From Escherichia coli (GTDB taxonomy: Bacteria > Pseudomonadota > Gammaproteobacteria > Enterobacterales > Enterobacteriaceae): a stretch of 64,000 bases of DNA. The notes under the pieces are model-generated. The model had not been told where the DNA came from. It made no database searches and saw only the letters and a list, made by a program, of their open reading frames with translations. A program made the translations under genes and the position numbers. The stretch lies in assembly GCF_003790525.1 (NCBI RefSeq), contig NZ_CP033635.1. One strand, 5' to 3'. Below are positions 46,856-54,511 of this stretch, in pieces. How positions within the stretch are numbered: position 1 is the first letter of the stretch; each line of letters starts with the position of its first letter.

Positions 46856-47988
46856 TTATCAATAACGTTAAGCTGGTGCTGGAAAACGAGGTGGTGCACG
46901 GTTCGCTGGAGGTGCAGGATGGCGAAATCCGCGCCTTTGCCGAAAGCCAGAGCCGCCTGCCAGAAGCGATGGATGGCGAAGGCGGCTGGCTGCTGCCGGG
47001 GCTGATTGAGCTGCATACCGATAATCTGGATAAATTCTTCACCCCGCGCCCGAAGGTTGACTGGCCCGCCCACTCGGCGATGAGTAGCCACGACGCGCTG
47101 ATGGTGGCGAGCGGCATCACCACCGTGCTGGACGCGGTGGCGATTGGCGACGTGCGCGACGGCGGCGATCGGCTGGAGAATCTGGAGAAGATGATCAACG
47201 CCATCGAAGAGACGCAGAAACGCGGCGTCAACCGCGCCGAGCACCGTCTGCATCTGCGCTGCGAACTGCCGCATCACACCACGCTGCCGCTGTTTGAAAA
47301 ACTGGTGCAGCGCGAACCGGTGACGCTGGTGTCGCTGATGGATCACTCGCCGGGCCAGCGCCAGTTCGCCAATCGCGAGAAGTATCGCGAATATTATCAG
47401 GGCAAATATTCCCTCACCGATGCGCAGATGCAGCAGTACGAAGAGGAACAGCTGGCGCTTGCCGCACGCTGGTCACAGCCTAATCGCGAAACTATCGCCG
47501 CAATGTGCCGCGCGCGACACATTGCCCTCGCCAGCCACGATGACGCCACGCACGCCCACGTTGCCGAATCCCACCAGCTTGGCAGCGTGATCGCCGAATT
47601 TCCCACCACGTTCGAAGCGGCAGAAGCCTCGCGCAAGCATGGCATGAACGTGCTGATGGGCGCGCCGAATATCGTGCGCGGCGGTTCGCACTCCGGCAAC
47701 GTGGCGGCCAGTGAACTGGCGCAGCTTGGCCTGCTGGATATCCTCTCTTCCGACTACTACCCCGCCAGCCTGCTCGATGCGGCATTTCGCGTCGCCGATG
47801 ACGAGAGCAACCGCTTTACGCTGCCGCAGGCGGTGAAGCTGGTGACTAAAAATCCGGCGCAGGCGCTTAATCTTCAGGATCGCGGGGTGATTGGCGAGGG
47901 CAAACGCGCCGACCTGGTGCTGGCGCATCGCAAGGGCAACCACATTCATATCGACCACGTCTGGCGTCAGGGTAAAAGGGTGTTCTGA
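46852..47988 (+). CDS. phnM: Amidohydrolase-family RPnTP diphosphatase
   Basis: 378 aa; metal-dependent hydrolase fold (HTD motif). Confidence 0.93.
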
Positions 47989-48545
47989 TGACGGGAAAAC
48001 TGATTTGGTTAATGGGGGCCTCTGGCTCCGGAAAAGACAGTCTGTTGACGGAACTCCGCCAGCGGGAACAAACTCAGCTACTGGTAGCGCATCGCTACAT
48101 CACGCGCGCCGCCAGCGCCGGAAGTGAAAACCATATCGCCCTGAGCGAGCAGGAGTTTTTTACCCGCGCGGGGCAGAACCTTCTGGCCTTAAGCTGGCAC
48201 GCTAACGGTCTGTATTATGGCGTCGGCGTCGAGATTGACCTCTGGCTGCACGCTGGATTTGACGTGGTGGTCAACGGCTCACGCGCCCATCTGCCGCAGG
48301 CGCGGGCGCGCTATCAATCGGCGCTGCTGCCCGTTTGTTTACAGGTTTCGCCAGAGATCCTGCGCCAGCGCCTGGAAAACCGTGGTCGTGAAAATGCCAG
48401 TGAAATTAACGCCCGGCTGGCGCGCGCTGCCCGCTATACTCCTCAGGATTGTCTTACGCTCAATAATGACGGCAGCCTGCGCCAGTCGGTCGACAAGCTG
48501 CTGACGCTGATTCATCAGAAGGAGAAACACCATGCCTGCTTGTGA
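47988..48545 (+). CDS. phnN: Ribose 1,5-bisphosphate phosphokinase
   Basis: 185 aa; P-loop GASGSGKDS. Confidence 0.93.
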
Positions 48546-48966
48546 GCTTCGCCCGGCTACGCAGTACGACACCGACGCAGTTTACGCGCTGATTTGTGAG
48601 CTAAAACAGGCGGAGTTTGACCACCACGCGTTTCGCGTGGGGTTTAACGCCAATCTGCGCGATCCGAACATGCGCTACCATCTGGCGCTGCTGGATGGCG
48701 AAGTTGTCGGCATGATCGGCCTGCATTTGCAGTTTCATCTGCATCATGTCAACTGGATCGGCGAAATTCAGGAACTGGTGGTGATGCCGCAGGCGCGCGG
48801 TCTGAATGTCGGCAGCAAATTACTGGCATGGGCAGAAGAAGAAGCCCGCCAGGCCGGGGCCGAAATGACTGAGCTTTCCACCAACGTGAAGCGCCACGAC
48901 GCGCACCGTTTCTATCTGCGCGAAGGCTACGAGCAGAGCCACTTCCGCTTCACCAAGGCGCTGTAA
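48532..48966 (+). CDS. phnO: Aminoalkylphosphonate N-acetyltransferase (GNAT)
   Basis: 144 aa; 14-bp overlap with phnN. Confidence 0.93.
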
Positions 48967-48967
48967 C

Positions 48968-49726
48968 ATGAGCCTGACCCTCACGCTCACCGGCACCGGC
49001 GGCGCACAGGGCGTTCCGGCATGGGGCTGCGAGTGCGCGGCCTGCGCCAGAGCACGACGCTCGCCGCAGTATCGCCGCCAGCCATGCAGCGGCGTAGTAA
49101 AGTTTAACGACGCAATCACCCTGATCGACGCCGGGCTGCACGATCTCGCCGATCGCTGGTCGCCAGGATCGTTCCAGCAGTTTTTGCTGACGCATTATCA
49201 TATGGATCACGTCCAGGGGCTGTTTCCGCTGCGCTGGGGCGTGGGCGATCAGATCCCGGTCTACGGCCCGCCGGATGAACAGGGCTGCGACGATCTGTTT
49301 AAACATCCGGGCCTGCTTGATTTCAGCCACACGATGGAACCGTTTGTGGTGTTTGATTTACAAGGGTTACAGGTCACGCCCCTGCCGCTCAACCACTCAA
49401 AACTGACCTTCGGTTATCTGCTGGAAACGGCACACAGCCGGGTGGCGTGGCTGTCTGACACCGCTGGCTTGCCGGAAAAAACGCTGAAATTTTTACGCAA
49501 TAATCAGCCGCAGGTAATGGTGATTGATTGCAGCCACCCGCCGCGCGAGGATGCACCGCGTAATCACTGTGATTTAAATACCGTGCTTGCGCTGAATCAG
49601 GTTATCCGCTCGCCACGGGTGATTCTGACCCATATCAACCACCAGTTTGATGCGTGGCTGATGGAAAACGCACTGCCGTCGGGGTTTGAGGCGGGGTTTG
49701 ATGGGATGGAGATTGGGGTGGCGTGA
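48968..49726 (+). CDS. phnP: Metallo-beta-lactamase-fold phosphodiesterase
   Basis: 252 aa; HxHxDH motif ([10 protein letters not shown]). Confidence 0.93.
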
Positions 49727-49760
49727 TGGGTGAGGGGCGATGCCTGCTCTAAACTCAACA

Positions 49761-50090
49761 TCAACGCCCATACTCATCTTCCATTCTCCGCTCTTCATCT
49801 TCTAGCTGCCGACGCTCCTGATCCAGCTGGCGCTGGCGATCGTCCAGCTGCCTGCGGCGATCTTCAAACTGGCGGCGGCGATCGTCATATTGTCTGCGCC
49901 GATCGTCGTTCACTTCACGCTGCCAGCCGTCGTCGCGCGAATCTTCATAGTCTCGCCCACGGTCAGGGTTATAAGCGGCGTTAATCGCCTGCTGAATATT
50001 GCCAATGGTGTCATCGATAATATCGGCCTGGGCCGGAACGGTGGACAGCGTGAACAGGGTGAATAAAAGAAATAGCGGAAAGCGTTTCAT
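49761..50090 (-). CDS. yjdP: Secreted low-complexity protein with RRRQ-type repeats
   Basis: 109 aa; N-terminal signal peptide (MKRFPLFLLFTLFTLSTVPAQA) followed by repeated DDRRRQ(Y/F/L)(D/E) units. Confidence 0.85.
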   Translation of the reverse strand: MKRFPLFLLFTLFTLSTVPAQADIIDDTIGNIQQAINAAYNPDRGRDYEDSRDDGWQREVNDDRRRQYDDRRRQFEDRRRQLDDRQRQLDQERRQLEDEERRMEDEYGR

Positions 50091-50158
50091 TAGCCAACCT
50101 CAAAAAGAAACTCTATCCACATTAGTCATTACTCATCCATGCAAGTAGTGGATGAATC

Positions 50159-50608
50159 TCAATTTCTCCGCTGCTCTATTGCCGTAATCGCCTCCACGCG
50201 TTGTTGATGACGACCGCCTTCGTACTGTGCGCCCAGCCACGCATCGACAATCATTTTTGCCAGTTCGAGGCCAACCACTCGTGAACCAAAAGCCAGCACG
50301 TTGGTATCGTTATGCTGCCGCGAAAGTTGCGCGGAATAAGGTTCGCTACAAACGACGGCGCGAATTCCGGCAAACTTGTTCGCCGCTATCGAAATACCGA
50401 CGCCAGTGCCACAAATCAAAATCCCGCCATCAGCCTCTCCGCCAGCAACGACCAGTGCGACTTGACTGGCGTAATGCGGATAATCAGTACGCTCTGACGA
50501 CCAGGTTCCTTTATCAATCACTTCAACGCCACGCTCAACTAAATGTGCCACTATTTCATGTTTTAAAATGAAACCGACATGATCACAGCCAAATGCAATC
50601 TTTTTCAT
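50159..50608 (-). CDS. rpiB: Ribose-5-phosphate / allose-6-phosphate isomerase B
   Basis: 149 aa; RpiB/LacAB fold (GCDHVG…CGTGVG). Confidence 0.95.
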   Translation of the reverse strand: MKKIAFGCDHVGFILKHEIVAHLVERGVEVIDKGTWSSERTDYPHYASQVALVVAGGEADGGILICGTGVGISIAANKFAGIRAVVCSEPYSAQLSRQHNDTNVLAFGSRVVGLELAKMIVDAWLGAQYEGGRHQQRVEAITAIEQRRN

Positions 50609-50966
50609 TCATCTTCCCCGCCCGCGCAAAACTTCACAATCAAAAAACATTTGTGATGTAAATGAATTAAAAACACCCAAAATCGATGAAACCCGCCTTC
50701 CCTATCTGTTTTACAGAGTTACATCTGGCAGCGCAATAGCGTTAAAGACACTCACTATCCAGCAACATCTATCATCCAATAAACCAGAAAAACAAATAAC
50801 ATCATGTTTTTAAAGTGATTAAATGAAATGAAATTTTAAGCCACTCTCCATTATTCACAACAAAACAAACTTTATAAATTTTATTTTTTTGTGAAGTTGC
50901 CAGCATCTTTTCTGTTCTTGCTGTGGTGATATAGTGGCGTCTTCAATTCAAGGACAAGAGAACGTG

Positions 50967-51857
50967 ATGAGCCAGTCAGAGTTTGATTCAGCGCTTCCGA
51001 ACGGTATCGGGTTAGCGCCTTACCTGCGAATGAAGCAGGAAGGAATGACAGAAAACGAAAGCCGCATCGTGGAGTGGTTACTCAAACCCGGTAACCTGAG
51101 TTGTGCACCCGCAATTAAAGATGTCGCAGAAGCTCTGGCGGTATCTGAAGCGATGATCGTTAAGGTATCAAAGCTGCTGGGGTTTAGCGGCTTTCGTAAC
51201 TTACGCAGTGCGCTGGAAGATTATTTTTCTCAGTCAGAACAAGTATTGCCTTCCGAGTTGGCTTTTGATGAAGCGCCGCAGGATGTGGTGAATAAGGTAT
51301 TTAACATCACTTTACGCACCATTATGGAAGGTCAGTCGATCGTCAACGTTGATGAGATCCACCGTGCCGCCCGCTTTTTCTATCAGGCCAGACAGCGGGA
51401 TTTGTACGGTGCCGGAGGATCAAATGCTATCTGTGCTGATGTACAGCACAAGTTTTTACGCATTGGCGTACGCTGCCAGGCCTATCCGGACGCTCACATC
51501 ATGATGATGTCTGCTTCGTTGTTACAGGAAGGAGATGTGGTGCTGGTGGTGACCCATTCCGGGCGAACCAGTGATGTAAAAGCGGCTGTAGAACTGGCAA
51601 AAAAGAACGGGGCAAAGATTATTTGTATAACGCATAGCTACCATTCACCGATAGCGAAGCTGGCCGATTATATTATTTGCTCACCGGCCCCGGAAACACC
51701 GTTATTAGGTCGTAATGCCTCGGCAAGAATATTACAACTAACTTTGCTGGACGCGTTTTTTGTCTCTGTCGCCCAGCTCAACATTGAACAAGCTAATATT
51801 AATATGCAAAAAACCGGCGCAATTGTTGATTTCTTCTCACCAGGCGCGCTGAAATAA
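50967..51857 (+). CDS. rpiR: RpiR/AlsR transcriptional repressor (HTH plus SIS domain)
   Basis: 296 aa from MSQSEFDSALPNGIG…; divergent from rpiB, upstream of the als genes. Confidence 0.92.
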   Translation: MSQSEFDSALPNGIGLAPYLRMKQEGMTENESRIVEWLLKPGNLSCAPAIKDVAEALAVSEAMIVKVSKLLGFSGFRNLRSALEDYFSQSEQVLPSELAFDEAPQDVVNKVFNITLRTIMEGQSIVNVDEIHRAARFFYQARQRDLYGAGGSNAICADVQHKFLRIGVRCQAYPDAHIMMMSASLLQEGDVVLVVTHSGRTSDVKAAVELAKKNGAKIICITHSYHSPIAKLADYIICSPAPETPLLGRNASARILQLTLLDAFFVSVAQLNIEQANINMQKTGAIVDFFSPGALK

Positions 51858-51915
51858 GAAAAAGGTAATTCCGCCATCGCGGAGTTACCTCTCCCCTTAC
51901 CGTGAGAACATGATT

Positions 51916-52851
51916 ATGAATAAATATCTGAAATATTTCAGTGGCACACTCGTGGGCTTAATGTTGTCAACCAGCGCTTTTGCTGCCGCCGAATATGCTG
52001 TCGTATTGAAAACACTCTCCAACCCATTTTGGGTAGATATGAAAAAAGGCATTGAAGATGAAGCAAAAACGCTGGGCGTCAGCGTTGATATTTTTGCCTC
52101 TCCTTCAGAAGGCGATTTTCAATCTCAATTGCAGTTATTTGAAGATCTCAGTAATAAAAATTACAAAGGTATCGCCTTCGCGCCATTATCCTCAGTAAAT
52201 CTGGTCATGCCTGTCGCCCGCGCATGGAAAAAAGGCATTTATCTGGTCAATCTCGATGAAAAAATCGACATGGATAATCTGAAAAAAGCTGGCGGTAATG
52301 TGGAAGGTTTTGTCACCACCGATAATGTTGCCGTCGGGGCGAAAGGCGCGTCATTCATTATTGACAAGCTGGGTGCCGAAGGGGGTGAAGTCGCAATCAT
52401 TGAGGGTAAAGCCGGTAACGCCTCCGGTGAAGCGCGTCGTAATGGTGCCACCGAAGCCTTCAAAAAAGCAAGCCAGATCAAGCTTGTCGCCAGCCAGCCT
52501 GCCGACTGGGACCGTATTAAAGCACTGGATGTCGCCACTAACGTGTTGCAACGTAATCCGAATATTAAAGCGATCTATTGCGCGAATGACACGATGGCAA
52601 TGGGTGTTGCTCAGGCAGTCGCAAACGCCGGAAAAACGGGCAAAGTGTTGGTCGTCGGTACTGACGGCATTCCGGAAGCCCGCAAAATGGTGGAAACCGG
52701 ACAAATGACCGCGACGGTTGCCCAGAACCCGGCGGATATCGGTGCAACGGGTCTGAAGCTGATGGTTGACGCTGAGAAATCCGGCAAGGTTATCCCGCTG
52801 GATAAAGCACCGGAATTTAAACTGGTCGATTCAATCCTGGTCACTCAATAA
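51916..52851 (+). CDS. alsB: D-allose ABC transporter periplasmic binding protein
   Basis: 311 aa from MNKYLKYFSG… with signal peptide. Confidence 0.95.
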   Translation: MNKYLKYFSGTLVGLMLSTSAFAAAEYAVVLKTLSNPFWVDMKKGIEDEAKTLGVSVDIFASPSEGDFQSQLQLFEDLSNKNYKGIAFAPLSSVNLVMPVARAWKKGIYLVNLDEKIDMDNLKKAGGNVEGFVTTDNVAVGAKGASFIIDKLGAEGGEVAIIEGKAGNASGEARRNGATEAFKKASQIKLVASQPADWDRIKALDVATNVLQRNPNIKAIYCANDTMAMGVAQAVANAGKTGKVLVVGTDGIPEARKMVETGQMTATVAQNPADIGATGLKLMVDAEKSGKVIPLDKAPEFKLVDSILVTQ

Positions 52852-52860
52852 AACTGAATG

Positions 52861-52945
52861 ATGCCGGATGGTGATGCTAATGAAGTGTCTTATCCGGCCA
52901 ACAAAATAACCTGAACGTAGACCTGATAAACGTAGCCCATCAGGC
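52861..52945. repeat. BIME (two REP-like palindromes) between alsB and alsA
   Basis: atgccggatggtgatg…cttatccggcc and gacctgataaacgtagcccatcaggc. Confidence 0.7.
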
Positions 52946-52978
52946 AATAATACGATATTTCGTGCAGAGAGGTTATTT

Positions 52979-54511
52979 ATGGCCACGCCATATATATCGA
53001 TGGCGGGGATCGGCAAGTCCTTTGGTCCGGTTCACGCATTAAAGTCGGTTAATTTAACGGTTTATCCTGGTGAAATACATGCATTACTAGGAGAAAATGG
53101 TGCAGGTAAATCTACGCTAATGAAAGTGTTATCCGGAATACATGAGCCGACCAAAGGCACCATTACCATTAATAACATCAACTATAACAAACTGGATCAT
53201 AAATTAGCGGCACAACTCGGTATCGGGATTATTTATCAGGAACTCAGCGTTATTGATGAATTAACCGTACTGGAAAATTTATATATTGGTCGTCATCTGA
53301 CGAAAAAAATCTGCGGTGTCAATATTATCGACTGGCGAGAAATGCGTGTCCGCGCCGCCATGATGTTATTACGCGTGGGCTTGAAAGTTGATTTAGATGA
53401 GAAAGTGGCGAACTTATCTATCAGCCACAAGCAGATGCTGGAAATTGCCAAAACGCTGATGCTCGACGCCAAAGTCATCATCATGGATGAACCCACCTCC
53501 TCACTCACCAATAAAGAGGTGGACTATCTGTTTCTGATCATGAATCAGTTGCGTAAGGAGGGTACGGCTATCGTCTATATCTCGCATAAATTGGCGGAAA
53601 TTCGCCGTATTTGCGACCGCTATACGGTGATGAAAGACGGCAGCAGCGTTTGCAGCGGCATGGTGAGCGATGTGTCAAATGACGATATCGTCCGTCTGAT
53701 GGTAGGCCGCGAACTGCAAAACCGTTTTAACGCGATGAAGGAGAATGTCAGCAACCTTGCGCACGAAACGGTTTTTGAGGTGCGGAACGTCACCAGCCGT
53801 GACAGAAAAAAGGTCCGGGATATCTCATTTAGCGTCTGCCGGGGAGAAATATTAGGCTTTGCCGGACTGGTCGGTTCCGGACGTACTGAACTGATGAACT
53901 GCCTGTTTGGCGTTGATAAACGCGCTGGCGGAGAAATCCGTCTTAATGACAAAGATATCTCTCCACGCTCACCCCTGGATGCCGTGAAAAAAGGGATGGC
54001 TTACATCACTGAAAGCCGCCGGGATAACGGTTTTTTCCCCAACTTTTCCATCGCTCAGAACATGGCGATCAGCCGCAGTCTGAAAGACGGCGGCTATAAA
54101 GGCGCGATGGGCTTGTTTCATGAAGTTGACGAGCAACGTACCGCTGAAAATCAACGCGAACTGCTGGCGCTGAAATGTCATTCGATAAACCAGAATATCA
54201 CCGAACTCTCCGGGGGGAATCAGCAGAAAGTCCTGATCTCCAAATGGCTGTGCTGTTGCCCGGAAGTGATCATTTTCGATGAACCTACCCGCGGCATCGA
54301 CGTTGGCGCGAAAGCCGAAATTTACAAAGTGATGCGCCAACTGGCGGACGACGGAAAAGTCATCCTGATGGTGTCATCTGAACTACCTGAAATTATCACC
54401 GTCTGCGACCGCATCGCCGTGTTCTGCGAAGGACGACTGACGCAAATCCTGACGAATCGCGATGACATGAGCGAAGAGGAGATTATGGCATGGGCTTTAC
54501 CACAAGAGTAA
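52979..54511 (+). CDS. alsA: D-allose ABC transporter ATP-binding protein (duplicated ABC domains)
   Basis: 510 aa; two Walker A motifs (GENGAGKST, GLVGSGRTE). Confidence 0.95.
   Translation: MATPYISMAGIGKSFGPVHALKSVNLTVYPGEIHALLGENGAGKSTLMKVLSGIHEPTKGTITINNINYNKLDHKLAAQLGIGIIYQELSVIDELTVLENLYIGRHLTKKICGVNIIDWREMRVRAAMMLLRVGLKVDLDEKVANLSISHKQMLEIAKTLMLDAKVIIMDEPTSSLTNKEVDYLFLIMNQLRKEGTAIVYISHKLAEIRRICDRYTVMKDGSSVCSGMVSDVSNDDIVRLMVGRELQNRFNAMKENVSNLAHETVFEVRNVTSRDRKKVRDISFSVCRGEILGFAGLVGSGRTELMNCLFGVDKRAGGEIRLNDKDISPRSPLDAVKKGMAYITESRRDNGFFPNFSIAQNMAISRSLKDGGYKGAMGLFHEVDEQRTAENQRELLALKCHSINQNITELSGGNQQKVLISKWLCCCPEVIIFDEPTRGIDVGAKAEIYKVMRQLADDGKVILMVSSELPEIITVCDRIAVFCEGRLTQILTNRDDMSEEEIMAWALPQE

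Follow-up and report, generated by a model that had tools for sequence, protein, structure and literature searches.

What kind of protein is made from a 330-nucleotide gene whose product is named after its own repeat, and under what conditions is it made? In the 64-kb stretch of Escherichia coli DNA analysed here (the window) the question is raised by yjdP, which lies between rpiB and phnP as in K-12. The window copy is 100% identical to that of E. coli SMS-3-5 (NC_010498.1), annotated there as 'DDRRRQL repeat protein YjdP' (WP_000819727.1), and the NCBIfam equivalog model NF041443 (DDRRRQL_YjdP) aligns over positions 1-101 of its 101 with YjdP residues 1-103, scoring 143.3 bits (E = 2.4e-42) against a cut-off of 90 bits; the name yjdP given in the first-pass annotation is therefore correct. 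Matches to PF28054 (YjdP) are precomputed on proteins 95-97% identical to the window protein and on every homologue for which a contig was traced. Both the gene and its DDRRRQL repeat were thus already annotated, the repeat being the basis of the official protein name, and as the repeat finding as first noted redescribes such a gene, by itself it adds little.

yjdP is a real, conserved, protein-coding gene of several Enterobacteriaceae genera. It is found in 5,404 of 5,426 complete E. coli genomes (99.6%), and homologues of named source come from Shigella, E. albertii, E. fergusonii, Citrobacter, Klebsiella sp., Buttiauxella, Cronobacter and Entomohabitans. The window protein is 97% identical to that of K-12, from which it differs by three changes (L13F, D38A and S61N), and the locus is without the 112-bp repeat element that K-12 carries downstream of yjdP. 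A literature search on yjdP in E. coli returned passing mentions only and no experiment on YjdP itself, a search on the repeat name DDRRRQL gave no match, and the locus tag b4487 gave unrelated papers only. The labels 'RNase H-like nuclease', 'Skp family chaperone' and 'membrane protein involved in colicin uptake' attached to some homologues were rejected as evidence, since they stem from the automatic naming of a low-complexity protein. Also rejected were Arm-DNA-bind_5 and DUF4140, two sub-threshold, composition-driven matches in a Pfam scan, and the NCBIfam models FlbB collar, RNase Y and HmpF, which scored far under their cut-offs and reflect charged helical segments. An antisense ORF (49730..49984, plus strand, 84 aa) was judged to mirror the codons of the repeat and was set aside as unsupported; two scan-called 'terminators', which fall within the repeat and on the wrong strand, were discarded. 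An Rfam search of window positions 47000-53000 found nothing.

Table 1. Features of yjdP and of its upstream region, in window coordinates.
Feature	Position	Strand	Basis
yjdP coding sequence, 109 codons + stop, 330 nt	49761..50090	minus	ORF list
Signal peptide, residues 1-22, MKR / FPLFLLFTLFTLSTV / PAQA	50025..50090	minus	Read from sequence; predicted cleavage between AQA and D
(FTL)n-encoding 9-bp tandem repeat in the signal-peptide core	50040..50063	minus	Tandem Repeats Finder, period 9, 2.7 copies
Amphipathic helix opening the mature protein, residues 23-40, DIIDDTIGNIQQAINAAY	49971..50024	minus	Conserved columns and AF2
Acidic linker, residues 41-61, NPDRGRDYEDSRDDGWQREVN	49908..49970	minus	AF2 secondary structure
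Heptad repeats of DDRRRQL type, residues 62-109, six complete units plus a partial one	49764..49907	minus	Lag-7 periodicity
Shine-Dalgarno GAGG	50098..50101	minus	Read from sequence, 7 nt ahead of ATG
-10-like hexamer TAATGT	50119..50124	minus	Anchored alignment; TAnnnT in all lineages
Inverted repeat TCATCCA-N9-TGGATGA, between box and -10-like hexamer	50133..50155	minus	Read from sequence
RcsB-box-like element TGAGATTCATCCAC	50148..50161	minus	Conserved position; its initial triplet is the stop codon of rpiB

The 109 residues of YjdP (MKRFPLFLLFTLFTLSTVPAQA followed by DIIDD...EDEYGR) fall into four parts: a Sec-type signal peptide, a conserved amphipathic helix of 18 residues, a flexible, acidic linker and a heptad helix of about 55 residues. 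The clear signal peptide reported in the first-pass annotation is borne out by inspection. A Sec-type signal has a basic n-region, a hydrophobic core of ~10-15 residues and small residues at -3/-1, and YjdP begins with an MKR n-region, continues with a 15-residue hydrophobic core and carries AQA ahead of the predicted cleavage site; A-x-A followed by D is retained across the family. The sequence holds no twin arginine and no cysteine, and hence no lipobox, so YjdP is not a bacterial lipoprotein. The core of the signal peptide contains a variable (FTL)n repeat, which is a new observation here: the window has two imperfect copies and other E. coli strains have 3-6 perfect ones, giving proteins of 112, 115, 118 and 121 aa (sequences L006, L005, L004 and L003). 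An in-frame series from 2 to 6 copies within one species constitutes a natural experiment on signal-peptide length.

The mature protein opens with a helix predicted by AF2 (pLDDT 67-74), the hydrophobic residues of which are spaced 3-4 apart (I25, I29, I32, I36 and A39/Y40) and which holds invariant alignment columns (D23, I24, I25, D26, I29, G30, N31, I32, Q33, A35 and A39). In the linker AF2 places a loop at residues 41-53, the long helix beginning near residue 54; in distant relatives the linker varies in length and is rich in D, S, G and R. That the mature protein is almost entirely repeat, as first described, overstates the case, since the heptads make up 48 of its 87 residues (about 55%), residues 23-61 being the conserved helix and the acidic linker.

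The repeats themselves are as regular as was claimed. Every arginine/aspartate-rich tandem unit that had been quoted is found in YjdP, and from residue 62 the units run in register as DDRRRQY, DDRRRQF, EDRRRQL, DDRQRQL, DQERRQL, EDEERRM and EDEYGR, six full heptads where at least four are expected of a heptad periodicity. Identities at lag 7 number 26 compared with 7.5 ± 2.3 (z = 8.0) when shuffling is restricted to the charged segment, a value reached in 0 of 20,000 shuffles, and lags 14 and 21 are likewise significant. At the DNA level, Tandem Repeats Finder detects a 21-bp unit in 3.9 copies (49827-49907, 77% matches). The suggestion of a polyelectrolyte did not survive: 17 acidic residues face 16 basic ones in the repeat segment, a net charge of -1, which makes it a near-neutral polyampholyte.

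In these heptads nearly every charge is paired with an opposite one 3 or 4 residues away, a close to optimal layout for salt bridges inside one helix, and each heptad carries a single hydrophobic residue. Opposite-charge pairs at i,i+3 and i,i+4 number 38, compared with 22 ± 3.5 in shuffled segments, while same-charge pairs at these distances number 4 compared with 20.9 ± 3.4, neither value being reached in 20,000 shuffles; such dense opposite-charge and sparse like-charge pairing is the charge network of single-α-helix (SAH, ER-K) domains. The AF2 monomer has one helix at residues 54-108 (55 residues, about 82 Å, pLDDT 88-98, pTM 0.37), although AF2 also gives confident single-chain helices to chains of coiled coils.

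A homo-oligomeric coiled coil, that is, a leucine-zipper-like parallel dimer or trimer, is the strongest competing account of the repeat region, and the first-pass annotation had named a coiled coil as one of its two suggestions. In such an assembly the seam of Y, F, L, L, L and M would occupy position d, arginine would occupy a, and salt bridges would join Arg at g to Asp at e' of the neighbouring chain. The heptad phase is indeed strict through six units, the hydrophobic position is the best conserved across distant relatives (as 'RRQLD'), and with the seam at d the residues at g (R/R/R/R/E/E/E) and at e (D/D/E/D/D/E/E) are complementary in a parallel dimer. However, a canonical coiled coil requires hydrophobic residues at a and d alike, whereas the other core position of YjdP carries a charged or polar residue in all heptads (R, R, R, Q, R, E), and the charges are already paired inside one helix. 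When the mature sequence was modelled as a fused dimer (mature-linker-mature), AF2 returned a pTM of 0.48, higher than that of the monomer, but the pLDDT of the C-terminal helix fell to 78-92 and that of the N-terminal helices to below 40; on these models, the difference in pTM neither supports nor excludes pairing. Foldseek gave no coiled-coil match, nor any other significant match in the PDB, with either the monomer or the fused-dimer model, and a PDB sequence search with mature YjdP gave no match. The earlier suggestion therefore stands as far as the heptad periodicity goes, but with one hydrophobic core position per heptad and a charge layout internal to the helix the canonical form is doubtful, and we regard a coiled coil as possible though not probable. 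An SAH-like rod of about 8 nm fits better.

When the rod would be made is suggested by the DNA upstream of yjdP. An RcsB-box-like element of the shared form TGAGA-N4-TCC stands 71-73 nt ahead of the ATG in all ten lineages examined, despite differing upstream genes, and in an anchored alignment it carries 1.47 bits per column compared with 0.34-0.51 in the flanks. The published consensus of the RcsB box is TN(G/A)GAN4TC(T/C)NA (PMC7913699), which the E. coli element fits at seven of eight specified positions, missing the final A. Since chance alone would give a 7/8 match about every few hundred bases, it is the conservation and position of the element that carry the argument; an exact 8/8 match to the consensus is absent from the whole window. 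The -10-like hexamer lies 37 nt beyond the start of the box and predicts a transcription start near 50112, about 42.5 nt downstream of the box centre and about 22 nt ahead of the ATG, a geometry comparable to that of rprA, in which the box begins 49 nt ahead of the annotated RNA 5' end. A consensus promoter scan upstream of yjdP found no sigma-70-like promoter, as expected where a promoter depends on an activator. The Shine-Dalgarno sequence has a GAGG or AGG counterpart at the equivalent place in other genera; the inverted repeat is confined to E. coli and is missing from other genera. The conserved element, placed as it would be for an activator-dependent promoter, is new here and, from its conservation and spacing, suggests Rcs control of yjdP.

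The presence of this box matches the roughly 10-fold induction of yjdP published for an inhibitor of LolCDE. By RNA-seq the transcript rose 9.5- and 10.6-fold, from 10.6 to 100.6 and 112.3 units, alongside osmB, bdm, wca genes, rcsA, ivy, spy and cpxP, and rpiB is missing from the table of genes that changed more than 5-fold (PMC5105897). In the Rcs literature searched, including some supplements, we found neither rcsB-mutant data on yjdP nor its listing as a member of the Rcs regulon. In an iModulon analysis yjdP is grouped with rpiB in Crp-2 (PMC6892915 supplement), which points to read-through from rpiB.

An alternative is that the box belongs to some other regulator, such as another NarL/FixJ-family protein or an RcsB heterodimer, or that induction upon Lol inhibition proceeds via Cpx or RpoS. 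The LolCDE inhibitor raises Cpx genes (cpxP, degP, spy) and RpoS genes (osmY, katE) alongside those of Rcs (PMC5105897), and overproduction of CsiR lowers yjdP expression 3.5-fold, with a ChIP peak within the gene (PMC5217608). The absence of the final consensus A would also be in keeping with another protein, but the same base is missed in the box-like sequences upstream of K-12 bdm and osmB, which share the TCCTG-type right half of the yjdP box. Moreover, the half-sites and their 4-bp spacing suit RcsB, the position of the box matches that in rprA, and none of the ten yjdP upstream regions contains a CpxR-type site (GTAAA-N5-GTAAA). We therefore consider control by another regulator or route rather unlikely and RcsB the better candidate.

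Selection on the gene bears on whether the rod itself matters. The dN/dS ratio is 0.07-0.11 overall, 0.3-0.4 in the signal peptide and, compared with Citrobacter, 0.01-0.04 in the repeats, the last value being taken at saturated dS; the signal peptide is less constrained than the mature protein. Judged by these codon comparisons, strong purifying selection acts on the repeats, and what is kept is their exact sequence and not composition alone. The comparison of repeat number across strains proposed in the first reading did reveal variation, with forms of 95, 102, 109 and 123 aa, but it is rare: among the complete E. coli genomes sampled, about 90% carry the 330-nt gene, and a 102-aa allele, the only one of that length queried, is present in 18 of 5,405 records. 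As selection preserves the repeat sequence, and nearly always the repeat number too, the length of the rod appears to matter.

The same data weigh against a disordered, hydrophilin- or LEA-like polyampholyte that would protect the periplasm during osmotic or desiccation stress and in which composition alone would count. Mature YjdP is indeed hydrophilic (GRAVY -2.25, 54% charged residues), and residues 41-53 of the linker are a predicted loop. However, hydrophilins are defined by a glycine content above 6%, under which YjdP falls with 4.6%, and the repeats are conserved at saturated synonymous divergence, their phase and the order of their charges depart strongly from random expectation, their number is nearly fixed in E. 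coli and AF2 predicts a confident helix. Even with the co-induction of yjdP with osmB, osmC, osmY, yjbJ, ymdF and otsAB (PMC5105897), we find this account very unlikely. That yjdP serves phosphonate catabolism, as its constant tail-to-tail placement with phnP, where the phn operon ends, might suggest (convergent in E. coli and three other contigs, with 3' ends overlapping by 4 nt in two of three contigs, and only one or two genes from phnP in Buttiauxella and Citrobacter), is scarcely credible, given that the genes are oppositely oriented, that yjdP has a conserved upstream element of its own and is retained in Cronobacter, Entomohabitans and a Klebsiella sp. with only phn remnants, and that its sole strong induction reported is by envelope stress and not by phosphate limitation.

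We propose that YjdP is an exported, charged helical rod made in the Rcs envelope-stress response, a picture that we hold, taken as a whole, to be somewhat on the probable side of even. yjdP would have a weak promoter of its own that requires an activator, most likely phosphorylated RcsB bound at the conserved box, so that YjdP would be produced within the Rcs response, and read-through from rpiB would provide a second input in E. coli. Export and cleavage between AQA and D, as the N-terminal sequence predicts, would release an 87-residue mature protein into the periplasm, where the repeats would form a stiff, charge-zippered, SAH-like α-helical rod of about 8 nm, leaving the Leu/Phe/Tyr seam and the N-terminal amphipathic helix free to dock, either to YjdP itself or to a partner. 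As to what the rod does in the periplasm, which is the least certain step, our best guess is a structural or protective role within the Rcs response. A more specific version, in which YjdP is a free-standing charged SAH in the periplasm, an Rcs-induced rigid rod of ~8 nm with its length under selection, serving as a spacer or adaptor of the stressed envelope that docks through its conserved N-terminal helix, and in which expansion of (FTL)n, carried by roughly one E. coli strain in ten, alters the manner of release from the inner membrane or prevents it, is unlikely to hold in all its parts. For a near-universal E. coli gene, the conserved RcsB-type box together with the published induction makes Rcs control a testable hypothesis.

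Within its own family (NF041443, PF28054) the window protein is a member with no difference of substance. The closest likeness outside the family is to the SAH (ER/K) domains of myosin VI/X, caldesmon and trichohyalin-type proteins. Like these, YjdP has a very high charge density arranged in acidic-then-basic blocks with almost no like-charge clashes, a charge periodicity of about 7 and, in the AF2 model, one long isolated helix; phmmer searches with YjdP gave matches of weak E-value to long R/E/Q-rich repeat proteins of 1,068-3,829 aa. In SAH domains, however, there is normally no conserved hydrophobic seam and the acidic residue is Glu, not Asp, whereas YjdP uses Asp/Arg in place of Glu/Lys and conserves a hydrophobic residue and a Gln in every heptad. 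Furthermore, an SAH domain is a spacer within a large eukaryotic protein, and YjdP is a predicted secreted bacterial protein of 87 residues.

Leucine zippers and Braun's lipoprotein Lpp, a 56-residue periplasmic trimer, share with YjdP the heptads with Leu at every seventh residue, and the YjdP helix (about 55 residues, about 8 nm) is similar in length to that of Lpp and lies in what is, by prediction for YjdP, the same compartment. Unlike them, YjdP has only one of the two core positions hydrophobic, and unlike Lpp it has neither lipobox nor Cys. The CpxP/Spy/ZraP family resembles YjdP, as predicted here, in being small, helical, highly charged, periplasmic and induced by envelope stress, but its members form a helical hairpin cradle whereas YjdP has a repeat architecture; no Pfam match of YjdP to this family was found at E ≤ 1, and the sequence contains no LTXXQ motif. 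In regulation, YjdP would join the RcsB-activated OsmB, Bdm, Ivy, MliC, YpeC, YmgD and Spy, which are likewise small exported or envelope proteins co-induced under LolCDE inhibition. The type of box is shared with the upstream regions of bdm and osmB and the box-to-start spacing with rprA, although none of these proteins is related to YjdP in sequence or fold. Among periplasmic proteins, a helix that is zippered by charges and bears just one hydrophobic seam is an uncommon design.

The window comes from Escherichia coli SMS-3-5, the 651 bp around yjdP being 100% identical to NC_010498.1. Situated 68 bp downstream of rpiB in the same orientation, and convergent, tail to tail, with phnP across 34 bp, yjdP is a real gene whose product belongs to the YjdP family: it scores 143.3 bits, against a cut-off of 90, in a full-length match to the NCBIfam equivalog model NF041443, and proteins near-identical to it carry a precomputed match to Pfam PF28054 'YjdP'. 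Gene, family and repeat had all been recorded previously, the protein being named after its repeat, and our literature search found no study on YjdP itself. The first-pass annotation, which described a secreted protein built from arginine/aspartate-rich repeats, was accurate but known beforehand, and its interpretation was right only in part. What we add is a conserved promoter architecture of RcsB type, a charge pattern of single-helix type under strong purifying selection, a near-fixed number of heptads and a variable (FTL)n signal peptide.

Positions of yjdP, its sequence elements and related loci (L-prefixed positions refer to compared loci, all others to the window)
Feature	Position	Strand	Remarks
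yjdP ORF	49761..50090	minus	109 aa; RefSeq 'DDRRRQL repeat protein YjdP', WP_000819727.1
21-bp DNA unit	49827-49907		3.9 copies, 77% matches (Tandem Repeats Finder)
ORF antisense to the repeats	49730-49984	plus	84 aa, Ala/Gly/Arg-rich
9-bp in-frame tandem repeat, (FTL)n	50040-50063	minus	unit CTGTTCACG; two imperfect copies; signal peptide hydrophobic core
-10-like hexamer	50119-50124	minus	downstream of box
Inverted repeat TCATCCA-N9-TGGATGA	50133-50155	minus	7 bp; between box and hexamer; E. coli only
RcsB-like box	50148-50161	minus	overlaps rpiB stop codon
phnP-yjdP gap, SMS-3-5	49727-49760		34 bp
phnP-yjdP interval with extra 112 bp, K-12	L002:1628-1773		between stop codons
(FTL)n-expanded alleles, E. 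coli	L003:301-666, L004:301-657, L005:301-648, L006:301-639
Hybrid sensor kinase/response regulator, O157:H7 (L011), Citrobacter and Entomohabitans	L011:646-2916, L009:2667-4931, L010:3085-4917		replaces rpiB and allose operon
yjdP/phnP 3' overlap, two contigs	L012:3330-3333, L013:3339-3342		4 nt
phnO, O157:H7 strain FRIK2455	L011:4151-4586		annotated frameshifted

The translation runs MKRFPLFLLFTLFTLSTVPAQA, DIIDDTIGNIQQAINAAYNPDRGRDYEDSRDDGWQREVN and then the heptads DDRRRQY, DDRRRQF, EDRRRQL, DDRQRQL, DQERRQL and EDEERRM with a terminal EDEYGR. In the charged segment, to which shuffling was restricted, 26 identities occur at lag 7 against 7.5 ± 2.3 in shuffles (z = 8.0, a value that none of 20,000 reached), lags 14 and 21 are likewise significant, and with the 21-bp unit in the DNA this heptad periodicity confirms the tandem units read at first pass. 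The signal peptide is borne out by inspection, as the N-terminus has the tripartite layout of a Sec signal peptide, A-Q-A precedes the predicted cleavage site, and neither a cysteine nor a twin arginine is present; we infer export and cleavage after Ala22. The mature protein had been called almost entirely repetitive; repeats are present, but they account for only 48 of its 87 residues, residues 23-61 forming a different conserved module. Four modules are shared by close and distant family members in alignments: a signal peptide with an A-x-A end; a helix D-[IL]-[IL]-D-x-x-[IV]-x-x-[IV]-x-Q-A-[IL]-N-x-A-[YW] with hydrophobic residues 3-4 apart; a variable acidic linker abundant in D, S, G and R; and 4-9 heptads whose best-conserved core is R-R-Q-L-D. 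The antisense ORF looks like a reverse reading of the repeat codons, and nothing supports it as a gene.

AlphaFold2 with a family alignment predicts a loop at residues 41-53 and one continuous helix of about 82 Å at 54-108 (pLDDT 88-98). In this helix opposite charges pair at i,i+3 and i,i+4 38 times versus 22.0 ± 3.5 in shuffled sequences, and like charges 4 times versus 20.9 ± 3.4, neither value being reached in 20,000 shuffles. Each heptad offers only one hydrophobic position (Y68, F75, L82, L89, L96, M103), and with that residue at d, position a is R, R, R, Q, R and E, g is mostly Arg and e is Asp/Glu. The charges are laid out as in a single alpha-helix (ER/K-type) domain, to which a narrow leucine seam is added. 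As for the coiled-coil or polyelectrolyte function originally suggested, the heptad phase holds, but position a is not hydrophobic, and the repeat segment, at net charge -1, is a polyampholyte (mature protein: GRAVY -2.25, 54% charged, net charge -7). A canonical coiled coil fails the defining test of hydrophobic residues at both a and d; the same failure counts against a homo-oligomeric coiled coil of the repeats, which we regard as possible if doubtful, as g-e' salt bridges could hold a zipper-like parallel dimer. As a test of pairing, a mature-linker-mature fusion modelled with AlphaFold2 and a matching alignment gave a pTM of 0.48 versus 0.37 for the monomer, with pLDDT 78-92 in the C-helix and below 40 in the N-helices, and a Foldseek search with the monomer and fused-dimer models returned no significant match.

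The gene upstream of yjdP varies by lineage: most E. coli and the Klebsiella sp. have rpiB there, O157:H7, Citrobacter and Entomohabitans a hybrid histidine kinase, Buttiauxella a transporter, Cronobacter an HSP90-like ATPase and three further contigs other genes. In 10 of 10 upstream regions the sequence TGAGA(A/T)T(C/T)(C/A)TCC... begins 71-73 nt before the ATG and is followed 37 nt later by a TAnnnT hexamer, the information content being 1.47 bits per column in the box and 1.28 in the hexamer versus 0.34-0.51 in the flanks. Structural work and gel shifts in Salmonella have defined the RcsB homodimer box as TN(G/A)GAN4TC(T/C)NA (PMC7913699). The yjdP box agrees with this consensus at 7 of 8 specified positions, missing the final A. 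That A is equally absent from the matching sequences upstream of K-12 bdm (TAAGATTAGTCCTG) and osmB (TAAGATGATTCCTG), both of which we take to be experimentally defined RcsB boxes. With a transcription start 7 nt downstream of the hexamer, the centre of the box would fall at -42.5. The geometry at rprA is the same, 49 nt separating the beginning of its box TGAGACGAATCTGA from the annotated 5' end of the RNA. The window holds three occurrences of the relaxed pattern (5.5 expected) and none of the full consensus, and as matches of this quality are common by chance, we place the weight on conservation and position. No T-run follows the inverted repeat between box and hexamer.

Published RNA-seq lends independent support to Rcs-type control. 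Upon LolCDE inhibition yjdP rose 9.5- and 10.6-fold (from 10.6 to 100.6 and 112.3 units) together with osmB, bdm, wca genes, rcsA, yjbEFGH, ivy and mliC, and rpiB is absent from the >5-fold table of that study (PMC5105897). Cpx and RpoS genes were also co-induced (PMC5105897), which speaks for a regulator other than RcsB at the box; we consider this rather unlikely; it bears on regulation only and leaves the structural question unaffected. In the PRECISE compendium yjdP is grouped with rpiB in the CRP-dependent 'Crp-2' module (PMC6892915 supplement), and read-through from rpiB while Rcs is quiet is suggested for K-12. CsiR overproduction lowered yjdP 3.5-fold (PMC5217608).

Present in 5,404 of 5,426 complete E. 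coli genomes, yjdP has no match in the other 22; in a few genomes, strains E18 and FLI21 among them, it is found in two separate places or partially, which suggests disruption or rearrangement there. Homologues occur in Shigella, E. albertii, E. fergusonii, several Citrobacter species, Klebsiella sp., Buttiauxella, Cronobacter dublinensis and Entomohabitans, and the family is narrow, with 52 representatives at E <= 0.001 among 1.84 billion, including a few long unrelated R/E/Q-rich repeat proteins. Two metagenome proteins (P0167, P0168) are weak relatives (E about 5e-4, 34-39% identity) with a like layout of signal peptide, short helix, low-complexity D/P/R/Y/Q stretch and 'RQIDQERRQIE'-type heptads; judged from such sequences, the architecture may extend beyond Enterobacteriaceae. 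Compared with Citrobacter, dN/dS is 0.07-0.11 for the whole gene, with synonymous sites saturated, 0.01-0.04 in the repeat region and 0.3-0.4 in the signal peptide. Constraint on YjdP is thus strongest in the repeats, which argues against a role through composition only, and a disordered protectant of that kind is very improbable. That the role of YjdP is tied to the phn operon we find barely credible.

The comparison of repeat number across strains proposed at first pass shows that forms of 95, 102, 109 and 123 aa exist, alleles differing in which heptads are deleted and E. albertii carrying a two-unit duplication, and that such variation is seldom seen among complete E. coli genomes. Every full-length match in two systematic samples, of 60 records apiece, spans 330 nt or 330 nt plus a multiple of 9, the latter because of (FTL)n copies in the signal peptide, and just 18 of 5,405 complete E. 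coli records have a match at 95% identity or above to the one 102-aa allele queried, that on most contigs in the protein collection. These spans and this rarity indicate that heptad number is nearly fixed in complete E. coli genomes. The (FTL)n repeat went unnoticed at first pass; its expansion was found in 6/60 and 5/60 sampled genomes (about 8-10%). Strain U13A has three perfect copies, AVS0068 four, AR_0086 five and an ST131 isolate six, giving proteins of 112-121 aa and taking the hydrophobic core from some 15 residues to some 27.

The neighbourhood differs among strains. The extra 112 bp of K-12 are G-rich palindromic repeat sequence, given as a hairpin/G-quadruplex element (PMC5100583); SMS-3-5 is without them, and its 34-bp gap contains no terminator-like hairpin for phnP or yjdP. 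The tail-to-tail pairing with phnP is old. Where the phn operon has decayed to remnants (loci L007, L010 and L015) yjdP is kept: Cronobacter retains phnH, Entomohabitans yjdM and the Klebsiella sp. phnG/phnH. The hybrid kinase region of EHEC is the OI-167 island (PMC10128022), and the element upstream of yjdP is retained despite the replacement.

Based on our data we propose that phosphorylated RcsB would activate yjdP from a class-II-like position, and that YjdP, exported and cleaved after Ala22, would upon Rcs activation accumulate in the periplasm under envelope stress. The mature protein would be a stiff charged helix, for the most part monomeric, with a seam and an N-terminal helix that would both serve for docking, and our guess is that its role is that of a structural or protective component for which length is important. 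Tested as a lipoprotein and as a CpxP/Spy-type protein, YjdP proved to be neither. It is alike in expression to the small Rcs-induced envelope proteins and in heptad phase and length to leucine zippers and Lpp, and its closest likeness, in charge design, is to the single-alpha-helix domain.
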